64,000 nucleotides of DNA, from the NCBI GenBank assembly GCA_037444305.1, contig JBBIMP010000029.1, positions 2,758-66,757 of the forward strand, in the 5' to 3' direction. Each line of letters opens with the position of its first letter. Positions within the stretch are counted from its first letter, which is position 1. Made by a program: the position numbers and the translations under genes. Shown here in pieces: positions 33,326 through 43,067 of this stretch. Below the pieces are notes generated by a model, which did not search any database, had not been told where the DNA came from, and was given only the letters and a program-made list of their open reading frames with translations. Source of the stretch: Acidobacteriota bacterium. Lineage in GTDB: Bacteria > Acidobacteriota > UBA6911.

Positions 33326-34384
33326 TCAGCGGGATCTCTCGACGGGATCGTCCAGCCCTGCCTCCAGGCGGGCGGCAAGGCTTGCGCTTTCCGGGTCGGC
33401 GGTGGCGAACCGGATCTCTTTTGCGGACTTCACCCCCAGCTCGAGTTCCACCGCCCGCTTGATCTGCGGCTGGTCGAACACCCGCCCTTCACGCAGCGTT
33501 GCACCGGCGCCATTGAGGCGCAGCAGGACCACGCCCGCCGCATCCAGCGCCACCCGGTCGGCGGCCGCCAAAGCCGCCGCGGGCGCAGCCCGCTCGCCCT
33601 CCTCGGGACCGCCGCTGCAGAACACCTCCGCGGCATCCATCACCACCACTACAGGGCGGTAGAGCTGGTTGATTTCGGCTATCATCGACTGCTGATCCGG
33701 GGACGAATGGAGCTCCTCCATATAGTTCCAGCGGTCCGGCAGGATTGTCGACTGCTTTGCCAGCAGGCCCACCGAGTTCTTGAGGCTGGCGCTGAAAACC
33801 CCGCCGAAACGGTGCGTCTTCAGATTGCAGGTCTGGACTATGCAGGCATCTTTGAGAAACAGCGGCACCTCGACGCCGTTTTTCCAGTGGGACCCGGGCA
33901 ATGCCTCCTGCCTCCACTCTCCTTCCGGCAGGTCTTCGAGCGCCAGAAGCTCGATGCCCAGTTCCCGGGCGATCTCGGTCATCCCGAGTTTGCTCCAGAC
34001 ATCCCGGGTCCGTCCCATCCCGCTCCGCTCCACCAGCGTCACCCTGCCGCACTCTTTTTCCCTGAGCCAGCCGACGATGGCCCGCAGGGCATCCGGGTGG
34101 GTGCTCGCCGGATAGGGATCCGGACTGTTGAAGCTGCCCTTCAGGAGCACGTCTCTTCCTTCGAAGGAGGGCGGATCCACGAGCCGCAGTGCCGTTGCAA
34201 TGGCCGCCCTGCGATCGGGATTGCGCGCAACCGCCACCGCCGCCCCGGCCGGCTCCTGCTCCTCCTGACGCGGCCGGGCCAAGGTCAGGCCGACCGCTCC
34301 ACAGCCGACGCGGCGGCCGAACTCCCGCCTGCTGATACGCCCGCAGCCCGGCAAGAAATCTCTGGAAGGCTTCATGGTTCCCAT
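33326..34384 (-). CDS. DUF362 domain protein with twin-arginine (Tat) signal.
   Basis: SRREFGRRVGCGAVGLTLA is a Tat motif. The body matches the DUF362 length and composition. The start could be 34375 (MKPS). Confidence 0.6.
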   Translation of the reverse strand: MGTMKPSRDFLPGCGRISRREFGRRVGCGAVGLTLARPRQEEQEPAGAAVAVARNPDRRAAIATALRLVDPPSFEGRDVLLKGSFNSPDPYPASTHPDALRAIVGWLREKECGRVTLVERSGMGRTRDVWSKLGMTEIARELGIELLALEDLPEGEWRQEALPGSHWKNGVEVPLFLKDACIVQTCNLKTHRFGGVFSASLKNSVGLLAKQSTILPDRWNYMEELHSSPDQQSMIAEINQLYRPVVVVMDAAEVFCSGGPEEGERAAPAAALAAADRVALDAAGVVLLRLNGAGATLREGRVFDQPQIKRAVELELGVKSAKEIRFATADPESASLAARLEAGLDDPVERSR

Positions 34385-34406
34385 GTTATCCAGATACCGG
34401 AGGTGC

Positions 34407-34625
34407 CATGCAAGAAAAAGTGCTGATCTTCGGAAAGAACTCCTGACCCTACACCCTGCAGGCCCGTGCGGCCTATGAAGAAAAGGGCGTGCCCTTCGAA
34501 TACAAAGACGTCCTGCAGGACCGGGCGGCTTTGCAGGAAATGATGCGGTACTCGGCGGGCCGGCGTTTCGTACCGGTCATCGTGGACGGCGGCCGGGTTG
34601 AAGTGGGATTCGCCGGAGGCTCCTG
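34407..34625 (+). CDS. Glutaredoxin/NrdH-like protein with an in-frame UGA at the first active-site Cys position. It is either a candidate selenoprotein or a recently inactivated grx pseudogene.
   Basis: GGAGG-4nt-ATG. The translation MQEKVLIFGKNS-U-PYTLQARAAYEEKGVPFEYKDV...GRRFVPVIVDGGRVEVG aligns over its full length to Grx (..YTKETCPYCHRAKALLSSKGVSF...GRTTVPQIFIDAQHIGG). TGA at 34443-34445. A small hairpin lies 13 nt downstream. Confidence 0.45.
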
Positions 34626-34707
34626 ACACATCTGAGGCCCGCAGTTGCGGGCCCGCCCCCGGCCGACTCTCGCAGCGCCGGCCTTCATTCCCGGCGGACA
34701 GGACTCC

Positions 34708-35898
34708 GTGAAACGCAACATTCTGATCCACTACCACGAGATAAACCTCAAGCGGAACAACCGCGGCTGGTTCGAAAGCCGCCTGCACCACCACGTGGAA
34801 TCCCTGCTCCGGGACATCCCGCACGACGGCGTCACCCGCTTCGGCGGGCGTATGCTGATCGCCGTGCGGGATGAGAGCCTGCTGCCGGAGGTCGGGAAAC
34901 GGCTGCGCGGCGTCTTCGGCATCGCCAACTTCGCGCTCACCTGGGAGGCGCCCGCGGACATGGACGCCGTCAAGTCCGCCCTGGCGGCGCTGCTGCAAAG
35001 CAGGGCTTTCGAGTCCTTCAAGATCGACGCCCGCCGCGGGACCAAGAAGTTTCCCTTCAATTCCCAGCAGGTCAACGTGGAGCTGGGCGCATTCGTGCAG
35101 AAGCTGACCGGCGCCGCCGTACGCATGGAGAATCCCGACCTGACCTGTTTCGTGGAGCTGGTCGGCGACCGCGCGTTCCTCTATTTCGAGAAAATCCCCG
35201 GCTCCGGCGGCCTCCCTTCGCGCACCGGAGGCAAGGTGCTCTGCCTTCTCTCCGGGGGGATCGATTCCCCGGTTGCCGCTTATCGCATGCTCCGCCGCGG
35301 CTGCCAGGTGCGCTACCTCCACTTCCACAGCTTCCCCCACACGAGCCGGGAGTCGCAGGACAAGGTCCGCCGCCTGCTGCAGATCCTGGCCCGCTTCCAG
35401 CTCGCGGCGCGGCTGCACCTCGTGCCGTTCACGGACGTCCAGCGCGAAATCGTGGCCTATGCCCCCCCGCCGCTCCGCGTGGTCCTCTACCGGCGGTTCA
35501 TGGTGCGCATTGCGGACGCGCTGGCCGCCAAGGAGAGCATCTCTGCGCTGGTCACCGGCGACAGCCTGGGCCAGGTTGCCAGCCAGACGCTGGAGAACCT
35601 CCGGGTGGTCTCGGCCGCCGCCCGGCTGCCCATCTTCCGCCCGCTCATCGGGGACGACAAGGAGGACATCATCCGGCTCGCGCGCGAAATCGGTACTTAC
35701 GAAATCAGCATTCTCCCCGACCAGGACTGCTGCACCATGTTCGTGCCGCGGCACCCGGAGACCATGGCCCGGCTCGAGCAGGTCGAGCAGGCCGAGGCCG
35801 CGCTGGACGTCGGCCGGCTCGTCGAAGCCGCGCTCGCAGGCTCCAGCCGCGAGACGGTCGAGGCCGACTTTTCCAGGGCTCATCCCAGCCTGGTGTGA
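34708..35898 (+). CDS. thiI: tRNA 4-thiouridine(8) synthase ThiI (no rhodanese domain).
   Basis: THUMP region, then the PP-loop [16 protein letters not shown] start at 34708 ([16 protein letters not shown]) fits ThiI N-termini. Confidence 0.8.
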
Positions 35899-36619: not shown

Positions 36620-36985
36620 ATGAAACGTACAACGCGCAACGACAAAGAGACTCTGCGGAAAATCCTCGAGCTGCAGTGCGAGATCTGCAAGGCCATGGGG
36701 CACCCGCTGCGGCTGGAGATCGTCGAGCACCTGCACGGCGGGGAGCTGTCCGCCGCCGCCCTGCTGGACCTGCTGGAGACGTCCAAGGCGAACCTGTCCA
36801 AGCACATCTCCCAGATGACCAAGGCCGGGATCGTAGACCAGAGACGCGAAGGCCGGCAGGCCTACTACCGCCTCACGCACCCCGAGATCCACGAAGCCTG
36901 CTCTCTCATGCGCTCGGTTCTCTACCGCCGGCTGAAGGAAGGCGGGAAACTGGCGCAGGCGCTGAGATCCCCGGAGGGGCGCTGA
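36620..36985 (+). CDS. ArsR/SmtB-family metalloregulator.
   Basis: ELQCEICKAMGHPLRLEIVEHL ... ANLSKHISQMTKAGIV is the ArsR HTH. 121 aa. Confidence 0.8.
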   Translation: MKRTTRNDKETLRKILELQCEICKAMGHPLRLEIVEHLHGGELSAAALLDLLETSKANLSKHISQMTKAGIVDQRREGRQAYYRLTHPEIHEACSLMRSVLYRRLKEGGKLAQALRSPEGR

Positions 36986-37019
36986 GCCATCGAACCACAG
37001 CCGCCATTCAGGTGAAACC

Positions 37020-38390
37020 ATGAAAAACCTTGCCCGAGTTCATTTTCTGATCCTGGCCGCGACGCTGGCCGGCGCGGGTCTCGCGGCCCCCGCCGGCGCC
37101 CAGCAGCCGCTGACCCTGCGGGAGTTCGTCACCCGCGTGCTGGAGCACAATCCCGACCTCGCCGCCGACGGCCCCGCGCGGGAAGCGGCGCGCGCCGACC
37201 TGCAGGCCAGCCGCGCCGGCTACCTCCCCCGGCTGGATTTCGAGCAGTCCTACGCCGGGGGCAACAATCCCGTTTACGTCTTCGGAACGCTGCTTACCCA
37301 GCGGCGGTTTACCGCGGCGAATTTCGCGCTCTCCTCGCTGAATTCCCCGGATGCGGTGGACAACCTGCAGACCCGACTGTCCGCCCGGCAGACCCTGTGG
37401 GATTTCGGCCGGACAAAGCGGCGGATGGAGTCGGCGGCAACCGGCGCGGAGCTGGTCGACCGGGGTCACGAGAACCACGTCCGGCACGTTCTGCTGGCGG
37501 CCCTGGACACATATTATTCCGTCTCGCTGGCGCGCGAGGCGCACCGGGCGTCGCAGGTCGCACTGGAATCGGCCGCGGCCATTCACGCGCAGGCAAGATC
37601 CAGAGTCGAGAGCGGCCTGGCCGTGGAAGCCGACCTGCTCCGCAGCCAGGCGCACCTGGCCGCCGCGCGCCAGCGCGAGATCCAGGCGCGCAGCCACCTG
37701 GAAACAGCCCGCGCCGCCCTGAACCGGATCATGGGGCAGCCGCTGGATTCCCCGCTCGGCGAAACCGCGCCGCTCGCCCCGGCAGCGCTGCCGCTTCCTA
37801 CCGAAGAGTCGCTCGCGGCGGAACAGCTCGCGCGGCGCCCCGACTACCAGGCCAAGCTGGCCGAGATGCGTCTCGCGGAACTGGAGGTTCGGAACGGCAG
37901 GGGCGAGTTCCTCCCGGTAGTGGGGGCGTTTGCCTCCTGGGAGATGGACAATCCCTCGCTGAAGGACTACGGGGGGAACAACTGGACCGCGGGCGTGAGC
38001 CTGCGCTGGAACCTTTTTGCCGGCGGGGCCGATGCGGCGCGCCTGCAGGCGGCCCGCCACCGGCTGGAACAGCGGCAGCGCGAGCTGCGGGCCCTGGAAT
38101 CCGCCATGGCCCTCGAGCTCCGGGCATCGCTCCTCCAGGCGAAGGCCGCGGAGGAGCAGGTGGATGTGACCCGCGCAGCCCAGGCACAGGCCGAGGAGGG
38201 ACTTCGCATCCTGAAAAACCGTTATGACGCCGGCCTGGCCACCATGACCGACCTGCTCTCGGCCGAAACCGCCAGAGCGGCCGCCAGGACCGCTTTTGCC
38301 GAAGCCGTGTATCACCACAGGATCAGCTTTGCCGGGCTGGAGTCTGCTGCCGGCCTGCTGAGCCCTTCATCCAAAGCCACACAACCCTGA
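37020..38390 (+). CDS. TolC-family outer membrane efflux protein.
   Basis: Signal peptide. Two OEP repeats rich in Ala, Leu, Arg and Gln. Confidence 0.85.
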   Translation: MKNLARVHFLILAATLAGAGLAAPAGAQQPLTLREFVTRVLEHNPDLAADGPAREAARADLQASRAGYLPRLDFEQSYAGGNNPVYVFGTLLTQRRFTAANFALSSLNSPDAVDNLQTRLSARQTLWDFGRTKRRMESAATGAELVDRGHENHVRHVLLAALDTYYSVSLAREAHRASQVALESAAAIHAQARSRVESGLAVEADLLRSQAHLAAARQREIQARSHLETARAALNRIMGQPLDSPLGETAPLAPAALPLPTEESLAAEQLARRPDYQAKLAEMRLAELEVRNGRGEFLPVVGAFASWEMDNPSLKDYGGNNWTAGVSLRWNLFAGGADAARLQAARHRLEQRQRELRALESAMALELRASLLQAKAAEEQVDVTRAAQAQAEEGLRILKNRYDAGLATMTDLLSAETARAAARTAFAEAVYHHRISFAGLESAAGLLSPSSKATQP

Positions 38391-38405
38391 AAAGGTGACG
38401 GAAAC

Positions 38406-39599
38406 ATGCGCAGATACTCATACATGCCAGTTTTACTTGCCGCAGCGGCGCTCTTCGCCGGCGCCTGCCAGGAGTCCCCGCGGGGCTCCGCACCGTTGAA
38501 GCCCATTCCGGCCGAGGTTTTCACGGCCTCCTACGAGGAGGTCCCGGCGTCGATCGCGGTTCCCGGTTCGGTGCAGGCAAGATACAGGACGGTGATCTCC
38601 TCGCAGATCAACGGCTTCGTCAAGGACGCCCGCGTCAAGGCCGGCGCCTCAGTAAGCGAGGGCCAGGTGCTCATGACGCTCGATGCCCGCGACGCGGAAA
38701 GCCAGAAGGCCGCCGCAGCCGCAGGCCTCGCAGAGGCCCGCGCGGCCCTGGACGAGGCCCGCAAGGCGGCCGCCGCCGCCGCCAACATGCGCGACGCCGC
38801 CAAAGCCTCGGCCAACCTCGCCGAGAACACCCACGCCCGCTACCTTAAGCTGTTCGAGACCAAGTCGGTTTCGCCCCAGGAGCTTGACGAGGTGAAGGCG
38901 CGCCGCGATGCCGCCGCCGCAGATCTCGCCGCCCGCGAGACCATGGCGGCCGCAGCCCAGGACCGTCTCCGGCAGGTCGAAGCCCGCATTGATCAGGCCG
39001 GCGCCCAGGCGCAGCGGGCCGACGTCCTGCTGGGCTGGACCGTCATCAAGGCCCCTGCGGCCGGCAGGATTGCCGAACGCTCCGTGGATCCCGGATCCGC
39101 GGTGTTCCCCGGCAGTCCCCTGCTGGTGCTGGAATCGACCGTCGTCCCGCAGGTGCTGGCGGACATGCCCGCCGGCCAGGCCGACCTGCTGCGCACGGGG
39201 CTCCAAGTTACCGTCCTTGAACCGGGTACGTCTGCCGCCCTGCAGGGCGCCGTCTCGGAGATCATCCCCGTGTCCGTCCCCGGAACGCACACGGTGCGGT
39301 TCAAGGTGGACATGCCGGCCGGCTTCTCCGCTCCCTCGGGCCGCTTCGTGGAGGTGCGCGTGCCCTCCGGAAGCCGCCGCATCATGCTGGTCCCGCGCCG
39401 GTCGCTGCGCCAAACCGGCCAGCTCACCGGCGTCTTCGTGGTCGACGCCTCCGCCAGCGCGCGCTTCCGCCTGGTGAAAACCGCTCCCTACGACGCCGAC
39501 AGGATCGAGCTGCTCTCGGGGCTGGACGCAGGCGAAAAGATCATCCGGTCGCCGGGTTCGCAGATCCTGGACGGCACCCCCGTGGAGGTCAGGCAATGA
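38406..39599 (+). CDS. Efflux RND periplasmic adaptor (membrane fusion protein, CzcB/CusB-like).
   Basis: Lipoprotein-like signal (LFAGAC), coiled-coil hairpin, beta-barrel domains. Confidence 0.85.
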
Positions 39600-42500
39600 G
39601 CAAACCCCAGGTAGCCGGGAAGCTGGCACAGGCATTCATTCACTCCAAACTGACCCCTCTCGCTCTGCTCGCAGCCATCGTGCTCGGGGCCGCGGCCGTG
39701 GTGATGCTGCCGCGCGAAGAGGAGCCGCAGATCATCGTTCCGATGATCGACATCTTCGTCGCCGTTCCGGGCGCCTCGGCCAAGGAGGTCGAAACGCGGG
39801 TCACCCGGCCGATGGAGCGCCTGCTGTGGGAGATCCCGGGAGTGGAGTACATCTACAGCACATCGTCGCCCGGGATGTCGATGGCCGTCGTCCGCTTCTA
39901 CGTGGGCGAGGACGAGGAAAAGAGCATCGTCCGGCTGAATCAGAAGATGTTCGCCAACTTCGACCTGATCCCGCCCGGAGCCTCCCAGCCGCTGATCAAG
40001 CCGCGCTCCATCGACGACGTGCCCTTCATGACGCTCACACTCTGGAGCCCGGAACTGGACGGCTATCAGCTCCGCCGCGCCGCCGCCGAACTCCGGAACG
40101 ATCTCCAGCAGATCCCGGACATTTCGGCCACAGAGCTCATCGGCGGCCAGCGCCGCCAGATGCGGGTCGAGCCCGATTCGGTCAGGATGGCCGCCTACGG
40201 CGTCAGCCCCTCCAGGCTTACAGGCGTACTCCAGATGGAAAACCGGGAAATCGACGCCGGGCGCCTCACGAGCGAAAACCGCAGCATCCCCGTCAGGCTT
40301 GGCGGCTTCCTCGAGACGGCGGATGATCTCGGGTCCCTGGTTGTGGGCGTGCATAATGGCTCGCCTGTCTACCTGCGCGACGTGGCCCGCATCGTGGACG
40401 GCCCCGAAGAGCCCAGGGACTACGTCTTCTTCGCCCCGGGCCCGGCCGCGTCCGTGAAGGGCATTTCCAGCGGGAGCGTTTCCGCCGGAGCCGGCTCCCA
40501 AGCCTCGTCGGAAGTGATCGGCGACAGCCTTTTCCCCGCGGTAACCATCTCCTTCGCCAAGCGCAAAGGGACCAATGCCGTGGAGCTGGCAAAGCAGGTG
40601 CAGCATCGCGCCGGGGAGTTTCACGCGCGCTACCTCCCTGCCTCGGTCCAGATGACGGTGACGCGCAACTACGGCGAGACCGCCGAGGAGAAGTCGAACG
40701 AGCTGCTGCTGCACATGATGATCGCCGTGATCTCGGTCACGCTGCTGATCTGGCTCGTTCTCGGCTTTCGCGAGTCCGGGGTCGTGGCGCTCGCCATCCC
40801 GATGACGTTGGCGCTGACGCTCGTGGTCTTCCTCCTGTACGGCTACACGCTCAACCGCATCACCCTTTTCGCCCTGATCTTCTCCATAGGCATCCTGGTG
40901 GACGACGCCATCGTGGTCGTGGAGAACATCGTGCGCCACCGCCGGATGCCTGGAAACAAAGGCCGGGACTTCGCGCAGGTGGCGGTGGAGGCCGTGGACG
41001 AGGTCGGCAACCCGACCATCCTCGCCACCTTCACCGTGATCGCCGCGATCCTGCCGATGGCCTTCGTCAGCGGCCTCATGGGCCCCTACATGCGGCCCAT
41101 CCCGATCGGGGCTTCCGCCGCCATGGTCTTCTCCCTGCTGGTCGCCTTCGTCATCACGCCGTGGGCCTCGGTCCGCCTGCTCCGCGGCGCGCAGCACAAG
41201 CACGGCGACGGCGAACAGGAAGACCGGACCACGCGGCTCTACCGCCGCGTCATGGGCACGCTTTTGGCCAGCGGCAAGAACCGGTGGGCCTTTCTCGGCC
41301 TGGTGGTGCTGCTGCTGGTGCTCTCCATGAGCACGGTCTATTTCAAGCTCGTGATCGTCAAGATGCTCCCCTTCGACAACAAGAGCGAGTTCCAGGTGAT
41401 CGTGGACATGCCGGAGGGGGTCAGCCTGGAAAAGACGGCGGCCGTGACGCGCGAACTCGCCGCCGGCCTGAACCAGGTGCCCGAGATCACCGACTACCAG
41501 ATCTACGTCGGCACCGCCTCCCCGTTCAACTTCAACGGCCTCGTCCGCCACTACTATCTGCGCCGCGGCGAAAACGTCGCCGACATCCAGGTAAACCTCA
41601 CGCCCAAGGGAGAACGCTCCCGGCAGAGCCACGAGATCGCGCTGCGGACACGGGAGATCCTGCAGCCGCCGGCCCAGGCAGCCGGGGCGCGCATCAAGGT
41701 CGCGGAAGTGCCGCCGGGCCCGCCCGTGCTGCAGACGCTCGTGGCCGAAATCTACGGCCCGGACTACGAAAGGCAGATCGAGCTGGCGCGGGAGATCCGC
41801 GACACGATGGACCGGACGCCGGGGGTCGTGGACGTGGACTGGTACGTGGAGGAGGAGCACTCGGAATGGACCTTCCAGGTCGACCGGCTGAAGGCTTCCC
41901 TCGCGGGAATCTCGCTTTCGGAAATCCAGCAGACGGTCGGCATGGCGCTGCACGGCGCCGGGTCGGGCCTGGCCCATCTCCCGCGCGAAGCCGAAGACGT
42001 GCCGATCGTGCTCCGGCTCCCCCTCGAGGCGCGCACCAGCATGGAAGACCTGAACGGCCTCCGGGTGCCGTCCGCCGCCGGAAAGCTTGTGCCGCTGTCC
42101 GAGCTGGGTTCCTGGCGGGAAGGAACGCGGGAGCGCAGCATCTACCACAAGAACCTCATGCCGGTGGTTTACGTCACAGCCGACGTGGCGGGGCACGAGG
42201 AGAGCCCGGTCTATCCCATTCTGAAACTGGACAAGGAGATCCGGAGCCGGGCGCTTCCCGAAGGCTACAACCTGGAAACCTACACGGCCAGCCAGCCCGC
42301 GAGCAGCGACCGGCTGGCCATGAAATGGGACGGGGAGTGGCACATCACCTACGAGGTGTTCCGCGATCTCGGGCTGGCCTTCGCCGCCGTCCTGGTCCTG
42401 ATCTACATTCTGGTGGTGGCCTGGTTCCAGGACTTCAAGACGCCTCTCGTGATCATGGCCGCAATCCCCTTTTCGCTCGTCGGCATCCTGCCCGGCCACT

Positions 42501-42856
42501 GGGCGATGGGCGCCTTTTTCACCGCCACCTCCATGATCGGTTTCATCGCGGGCGCGGGGATCGTCGTGCGCAATTCGATCATCCTGGTGGACTTCATCGA
42601 GCTCCGGCTGAAGATGGGCGACCCGCTTGACCGGGCCGTCATCGAGGCCGGCGCGGTGCGCTTCCGGCCCATGATGCTGACGGCCGCCGCCGTCGTCGTC
42701 GGGGCCGCGGTGATTCTCTTCGACCCGATCTTCCAGGGTCTGGCAATATCATTGATGGCGGGTGAGGTGGCCTCGCTCCTGCTGAGCCGCATGACCGTTC
42801 CGGTTTTGTATTACATGATGAGGAAGCGCGAACCTGCCGCGAGCGTTTCCCAATGA
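39596..42856 (+). CDS. czcA: Heavy-metal efflux RND permease (CzcA/CusA family).
   Basis: 1086 aa, 12-TM RND architecture with N-terminus [30 protein letters not shown]. The ATGA start overlaps the adaptor gene. Confidence 0.9.
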
Positions 42857-42872
42857 CGAAGGAGATTTTCAA

Positions 42873-43067
42873 ATGAGCATGGAAAGATGGATAAGGCTGA
42901 TCGCGGGGAGTTTCGTCCTGGGCAGCCTGGCGCCGGCATACTGGGTGAACGTCAATTTCCTGTGGTTCACGGCTTTCGTGGGCGCGAACCTGCTGCAGTC
43001 CGCGCTCACGCGCTGGTGCCTGATGGAGGACATCCTGCACAAGCTCGGCGTCGCCCAAAAGCCGTAA
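42873..43067 (+). CDS. DUF2892 small membrane protein (YgaP C-terminal-like).
   Basis: 64 aa. RLIAGSFVLGSLA...GANLLQSALTRWCLMEDIL resembles the DUF2892 consensus with a conserved Cys. Confidence 0.55.
   Translation: MSMERWIRLIAGSFVLGSLAPAYWVNVNFLWFTAFVGANLLQSALTRWCLMEDILHKLGVAQKP

Follow-up and report, generated by a model that had tools for sequence, protein, structure and literature searches.

The interval 34408-34635 (plus strand) of the DNA analysed here, a 64,000-nt stretch of an Acidobacteriota metagenome-assembled genome (MAG) referred to below as the window, very probably encodes a 75-residue thioredoxin/glutaredoxin-fold protein of NCBIfam family NF041114, in which two in-frame UGA codons are both recoded as selenocysteine (Sec, U), each by its own hairpin, and in which the two Sec residues, U13 and U73, most likely form a redox pair. 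It is signals in the nucleotide sequence that suggest recoding of both codons. By all of its sequence-level features the gene belongs to UXX-star selenoprotein family 1. Genes of this kind are already catalogued, and the one described here is an instance that the annotation of an Acidobacteriota MAG lacks.

Gene structure and coding sequence

A Shine-Dalgarno-like GGAGG (34399-34403, plus strand) can be read off the sequence 4 nt 5' of the start codon, ATG 34408-34410, and the orthologue in another Acidobacteriota MAG (locus L001) opens with the identical MQEKVLIFGK. The coding sequence, identified by translation, by its match to NF041114 and by comparison with the L001 orthologue, gives the product MQEKVLIFGKNS-U-PYT...GFAGGS-U-HI-stop, and a plain translation of 34408-34626 shows asterisks at codons 13 and 73. 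The first putative Sec codon, UGA 34444-34446, encodes residue 13 and falls on the first Cys of CPYC when aligned with Cys and TGA homologues, so that the active-site motif U-P-Y-T occupies residues 13-16. The second, UGA 34624-34626, encodes residue 73, the family-defining U of U-X-X-stop. The 3' end reads TGA CAC ATC TGA (34624-34635), and the last of these triplets, TGA 34633-34635, two codons past the second Sec codon, is the true stop codon. No frameshifts were found in the glutaredoxin-like frame, and the family-invariant residues downstream of TGA 34444 are all kept.

A preliminary description of the locus had reported the same GGAGG, ATG and first TGA about 1 nt too far upstream (from 34398, at 34407 and at 34443-34445, respectively), and its read-through peptide matches the translation of 34408-34626 exactly. 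It had proposed a glutaredoxin-like selenoprotein with the TGA on the first active-site Cys, giving U-P-Y-T; the proposal holds as far as a Sec candidate of glutaredoxin fold and the homology are concerned, but the second Sec codon was missed, UGA 34624 having been taken as the stop codon in place of 34633-34635. A second, independent, per-run assembly (Logan SRR11582151) contains the same 341 nt, both TGAs included, which supports the reliability of the sequence.

The gene is missing from the gene calls of GCA_964538715.1, contig CAZIEJ010000019.1. The interval between the genes for ThiI and the DUF362 protein is a gap of 260 nt in the deposited MAG and holds no called gene.

Family assignment and homology

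NF041114 is the NCBIfam equivalog "UXX-star selenoprotein family 1", with WP_258313609.1 as its representative sequence. Residues 1-72 matched this profile with 97.3 bits (cutoff 72), the match ending at profile position 67 of 70. Appending Cys-His-Ile, which corresponds to read-through to 34632, raised the score to 104.7 bits and extended the match over the entire profile (positions 1-70 of 70). Because both score and coverage increase, TGA 34624 is interpreted as a second Sec codon. A 2026 review of prokaryotic selenoproteins tabulates NF041114 with the motif UxxT and 2 Sec, under the name 'Distant Grx-like protein 1' (PMC13188914).

The window protein shares with UXX-star family 1 a length of about 70-75 residues, UxxT at the glutaredoxin active-site position, and a second Sec in the third-last position, ahead of the stop. 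It differs in its tail, U-H-I instead of the usual U-G-V, the His being common only to L001 and L037 and the Ile occurring in 0 of the 80 relatives described below. It differs also in having ThiI as the adjoining gene, a neighbour found in only 4 of 81 loci.

Similarity to classical dithiol glutaredoxins (PF00462; Grx3, 1FOV/3GRX) is seen at the level of the fold. Pfam Glutaredoxin PF00462 matches residues 5-63 with 49.4 bits (cutoff 22.9), and alignment with E. coli Grx3 (3grx/1fov; E = 3e-5) places the first TGA opposite Cys11 of CPYC. Shared elements include a Lys 3 residues before the nucleophile, Pro-Tyr after it, the cis-Pro 'VP' and the GG motif. Sec in place of the N-terminal Cys is also found in the Sec-containing glutaredoxin (UxxC) of Clostridium/Alkaliphilus oremlandii. 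In contrast to both, the window protein has Thr and no resolving Cys, and lacks conservation of the Thr in the TVP glutathione-binding motif. The classical active site (CPYC/CxxC dithiol or CGFS monothiol) is absent, with UPYT in its place, and so are the classical glutathione-binding residues (TVP, GG-x-DD): the residue before VP is variable, being Phe here, and the chain stops 5 residues past GG, thus lacking DD and the last helix. The C-terminal helix of classical dithiol glutaredoxins is replaced by a five-residue tail with the second Sec. The product scores below every cutoff of the named Grx, NrdH, and YruB equivalogs.

A glutaredoxin-like domain ending in Sec-X-X-stop, with a SECIS element necessarily past the stop codon, is also found in UXX-star families 2 and 3 and in the HUGP/GUXX-star fusion selenoprotein, for which Haft and Tolstoy (2025) are reportedly the source. 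Scores against these three models (NF041211, NF047338, NF045501) were 54.3 vs. 100, 61.3 vs. 97 and 58.4 vs. 325, all below cutoff.

More distant parallels may be drawn with mammalian thioredoxin reductase, which carries a redox-active Sec on a C-terminal GCUG tail, and with SelL, of the UxxU diselenide type. As in these proteins, the Sec carried by a flexible C-terminal tail could undergo exchange with a chalcogen of the active site, and two Sec residues in a small redox domain could form a diselenide. The folds or organisms are unrelated, however, these being eukaryotic proteins with a 3'-UTR SECIS of another type, and no homology is claimed.

Conservation among relatives

One scan of a species-representative genome collection yielded 80 loci, mostly from Acidobacteriota/Vicinamibacterales and Desulfobacterales-type MAGs, which together with the window make 81 sequences. 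TGA-NNN-NNN-stop is found at the C-terminus in 81/81 members. The tail is U-X-V-stop in all 80 relatives, and the two residues after U are GV in at least 66. The stop codon after UXX, tallied in 78 of the 81 members, is TGA in 34, TAG in 30, and TAA in 14.

Alignment places codon 13 opposite Cys in proteins P0001-P0009 and in 38 loci, and opposite TGA in 42 other loci. With the window included, codon 13 is thus TGA in 43/81 and TGC/TGT in 38/81, a Sec/Cys pair. Codon 73 has no Cys counterpart among the 81, in agreement with the family name, in which 'seleno' stands without brackets. Nine database homologues retrieved by protein search are all Cys forms and were cut by gene callers exactly at the C-terminal U.

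The orthologue in L001 is 64% identical, has both TGAs and reads MQEKVLIFGKSA-U-PYT...GGS-U-HV-stop. This locus is syntenic with the window over VWA, DUF362, grx, ThiI, macro, and TolC genes, at 54-79% identity. The comparison with orthologues called for in the preliminary description finds TGA, and not Cys, at codon 13 of the syntenic relative.

Two members depart from the common pattern. L045 (3037-3075) is a Cys form, with TGT at codon 13, that retains downstream sequence typical of Sec forms (GCCGCCCGTGAGGACTACGCAAGGCGGC); from its sequence it looks like a recent Sec-to-Cys switch. L064 (1472-1730), from a Fibrobacteraceae genome, has a full dithiol CPFC and an insert, SSLRGGIPLF, before a GGT-U-SV-stop tail, an outlier architecture in the family.

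Candidate SECIS element within the coding region

The candidate element for the first UGA (SECIS 1) is the hairpin AGGCC-CGUGC-GGCCU (34460-34474, plus strand), with a stem of 5 bp and the loop CGUGC. The loop start lies 21 nt downstream of the U of the UGA, and 18 nt separate codon and loop. This hairpin had already been pointed out as a possible SECIS, and it is real and plausible as such. A second hairpin put forward with it, AAGGG-CGUG-CCCUU at 34483-34496, is not supported as a SECIS: its loop starts 44 nt after the UGA, outside the 19-24 nt at which the loops of nearly all 77 family hairpins begin, and it lies in a variable coding stretch.

Helix conservation was evaluated in gap-free alignments of the coding region whose columns are codon-anchored and not fitted to structure, with U forms (A2) and Cys forms (A3) kept apart. 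In the U forms 56.7% of cells are paired, a value reached by 0 of 500 shuffles, and the helix shows third-position covariation (GCC...GAG vs. GCU...GAA). In the Cys forms 34.6% are paired, which 156 of 500 shuffles reach, so that the helix there behaves like the shuffles. The Arg codon seven codons 3' of the Sec codon is CGU in 35/43 U forms vs. 7/38 Cys forms (Fisher p = 1e-8, with loci that are phylogenetically non-independent), and synonymous-site constraints on Arg CGU, Ala GCY, and GAR are specific to TGA forms. Shuffle-normalised stability z-scores for positions +10 to +38 are lower in U forms than in Cys forms (Mann-Whitney p = 5e-8); the minimum free energy of the 52 nt downstream of codon 13 did not separate the two.

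A simple hairpin descriptor was also applied, requiring 5 bp or more in the stem, 3 or more of them G-C, a loop of 3-5 nt containing GU or GG, and a loop start 19-24 nt after the U of the UGA. At the N-terminal site it was passed by only 12 of the 43 U forms, the window included, and by 0/38 Cys forms. These sequences indicate that SECIS 1 varies in structure from member to member, and many Vicinamibacterales members have a longer bulged stem instead of the simple hairpin. An alternative helix (columns 9-13 with 19-23) showed high pairing, but its covariation was not above that of shuffles, and conservation of Arg and Tyr codons accounts for the pairing; this candidate was rejected.

Candidate SECIS element after the stop codon

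U73 is only two codons from the end of the protein, and a SECIS element serving it must therefore sit in the 3' untranslated region. Directly 3' of the stop codon lies a hairpin overlooked in the preliminary description, GGCCCGC-AGUU-GCGGGCC (34636-34653, plus strand; SECIS 2), identified by folding and covariation. It is a perfect 7-bp stem with the loop AGUU and a folding energy of -18.4 kcal/mol; the first loop nucleotide is 19 nt from the U of the second UGA, with 16 nt between UGA and loop.

An equivalent post-stop hairpin of 4-14 bp was found with RNAfold in 77 of the 81 members. In nearly all of these 77 hairpins the distance from the U of the UGA to the loop start is 19-24 nt (full range 16-26). 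All 77 loops contain G and 56 contain GU, common versions being GGUC, GUC, CGUGA, and CGUGC; the commonest, GGUC, is the loop found in E. coli fdhF. Post-stop folding energies fall below those of dinucleotide shuffles in 71/81 loci (Wilcoxon p = 1e-12). When the 7-bp helix itself was followed in a sequence-only MAFFT alignment (A4), 71% of cells paired vs. 52.6% in shuffled alignments, and 0/500 shuffles reached the observed value. Double-sided changes numbered 130 vs. 65 expected, covariation was present in 7/7 pairs, and all slid registers scored lower. On a MAFFT alignment of the 3' regions of all 81, RNAalifold predicted no structure, since hairpins that differ in loop length fall out of register there.

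Both window hairpins (34460-34474 and 34636-34653) lie within the published constraints for bacterial SECIS elements, namely a stem of 4-16 bp, a loop of 3-9 nt, G followed by G/U near the loop start, and a distance of 16-37 nt from the UGA (PMC13188914). The simple descriptor is passed by both TGAs of the gene, and by 47 of the 1537 TGA triplets of the window (3.1%), which gives its chance level. A search of the whole window against Rfam at gathering threshold and a permissive search of 34350-34700 returned nothing meaningful, the best match being Hrs10 (E = 0.41).

Selenocysteine machinery and rival readings of the UGA codons

Neither the Pfam families of selA, selB, and selD nor a tRNA-Sec were found in the window or elsewhere on the same 69-kb contig, one contig of the genome. 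The SelD-type GCGCK motif is absent from 0.6 Mb (window plus loci), and ARAGORN detected no tRNA genes in the window or in 83 loci scanned (L001-L084 set), about 0.6 Mb, which is fewer than expected by density. For UXX-star family 1, no experimental selenium incorporation was found in the accessible literature.

The missing gene call in the deposited annotation and the lack of visible Sec machinery in the window would also suit a glutaredoxin pseudogene, inactivated by a recent nonsense mutation of codon 13 from TGC/TGT to TGA, an alternative already entertained in the preliminary description. The comparative data make this extremely unlikely: 42 other species, among them the one with the syntenic orthologue (64% identity), also have TGA at codon 13 (43 TGA and 38 Cys forms in all), and L001, at such divergence, would not share a nonsense mutation. 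The intact frame with its family-invariant residues kept downstream of the TGA, a SECIS-type hairpin at the right distance, and synonymous-site constraints specific to TGA forms speak against it as well. That this organism has reassigned UGA, to Gly or Trp for instance, with both codons as ordinary sense codons, has a negligible probability. Reassignment is excluded because TGA is a normal stop in the window, where it ends 33 of 48 called genes at normal, domain-complete lengths; no in-frame TGA occurs at Gly or Trp columns of conserved genes in the window, and the window's intergenic gaps contain no other convincing TGA-interrupted frame or selenoprotein gene besides the glutaredoxin-like one.

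It is also very improbable that only UGA 34444 is recoded and that the protein ends at UGA 34624, with the hairpin at 34636-34653 acting as a terminator or being unrelated, even though hairpins just past a gene end commonly are terminators and UGA is the commonest stop in the window. The TGA-NNN-NNN-stop arrangement is invariant (81/81) and the two residues encoded after the TGA are themselves conserved, with GV in at least 66; moreover, the curated profile spans the last three residues, and the score increases when they are added. The hairpin is followed by no T-run, a terminator scan found nothing there, and the ThiI gene follows 72 nt on in the same orientation. Across members, the stem covaries around a conserved loop motif that keeps a conserved distance from the UGA. 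A double selenoprotein with one hairpin for each UGA remains the preferred reading.

Genomic context

The gene for ThiI (tRNA 4-thiouridine synthase; 34708-35898, plus strand; TIGR00342, 374.6 bits; Pfam ThiI_fer, THUMP, and ThiI) starts 72 nt downstream of the glutaredoxin-like gene in the same orientation, and a macro-domain gene is also found downstream. This ThiI consists of THUMP and PP-loop domains without a rhodanese domain, and starts either with GVK... at 34708 or at TTG 34645. A divergent gene 23 nt upstream (33326-34384, minus strand; PF04015) encodes a DUF362 protein with a Tat-like SRREF motif in its N-terminal translation. This arrangement is the one previously reported.

Stop codon UGA 34633 is in frame with the ThiI open reading frame with no stop between them (34633-35898), so that read-through would give a Grx-ThiI fusion. 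This is probably a coincidence, since the L001 orthologue ends in TAG.

A conserved-neighbour analysis found no universal neighbour of the UXX-star gene, only lineage-specific ones (ThyX, Def, a thioesterase, LOG, and an ABC ATPase). Vicinamibacterales loci have ThyX and Def, Desulfobacterales loci have LOG, and ThiI adjoins the gene in the window, L001, L045, and L070. In 28 loci (including L005, L008, L058, and L065) a double-length ThyX thymidylate synthase (about 540 aa; PF02511) lies beside the UXX-star gene, within 3 kb, often together with a peptide deformylase and a 4HBT thioesterase. These loci are mostly from Vicinamibacterales, with one bin labelled Woeseiaceae. A LOG-family gene adjoins the UXX-star gene in 13 loci, most of them Desulfobacterales-type.

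Further along the window, directly downstream of the grx-ThiI-macro run, the region 36620-43067 contains an ArsR/HTH_20 regulator followed by an RND efflux operon with a TolC-like OEP, a membrane-fusion protein, an AcrB-type pump, and a YgaP-like small membrane protein. A coenzyme F420 biosynthesis cluster (CofC, CofD, and F420 ligase), with an F420-dependent oxidoreductase and a PNPOx-like protein, occupies 60984-64390.

Proposed mechanism

Both UGA codons would be read as selenocysteine via the standard bacterial SelB/tRNA-Sec route, SECIS 1 (34460-34474) serving U13 and SECIS 2 (34636-34653) serving U73. The third UGA, at 34633, 6 nt after that of U73, abuts the stem and leaves no room for the spacing of about 16 nt to the loop; it would therefore be read as a stop.

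Within the motif K-x-x-U-P-Y-T, U13 would take the position of the nucleophile, where helix 1 starts, with Thr replacing the resolving Cys of CPYC. U73 would sit on a short five-residue tail, GG-S-U-H-I, two residues past the conserved GG. The GG motif of glutaredoxins adjoins the active site, and in some monothiol (Grx5-type) glutaredoxins a Cys after GG forms a disulfide with the catalytic Cys; for these reasons pairing of U13 with U73 is favoured. The redox couple passing reducing equivalents to a substrate would then be a diselenide between U13 and U73 or, in the Cys forms, a Cys13-U73 selenenylsulfide. By analogy with these glutaredoxins, this redox couple is the most likely mechanism.

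The main alternative chemistry is the binding of soft metals or metalloids by the two selenols; metal or metalloid chelation was suggested for the UXX-star family (PMC13188914). Returning to the favoured redox couple, a more speculative and rather unlikely extension is that folding back of the U73 tail makes the protein a natural diselenide oxidoreductase which, in the acidobacterial lineage, would be a dedicated redox or chalcogen-relay partner of the rhodanese-less ThiI; in a variant of this proposal, occasional read-through of UGA 34633 would yield the in-frame ThiI fusion. ThiI neighbours the UXX-star gene in two differently arranged lineages, window/L001 and L045/L070.

Significance

For the family, interest lies in two Sec residues within 75, a bacterial SECIS element wholly in the 3' untranslated region, and a Sec-UGA 6 nt from a stop-UGA. 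The two Sec, the post-stop SECIS, and the adjacent UGAs are already implied by the published name and table entry of the family. Standard gene callers miss the gene entirely, and even a careful reader cut the product at the second Sec codon, which makes the locus a useful test case for selenoprotein-aware annotation. For the organism, the gene marks this Acidobacteriota MAG as a likely user of selenocysteine.
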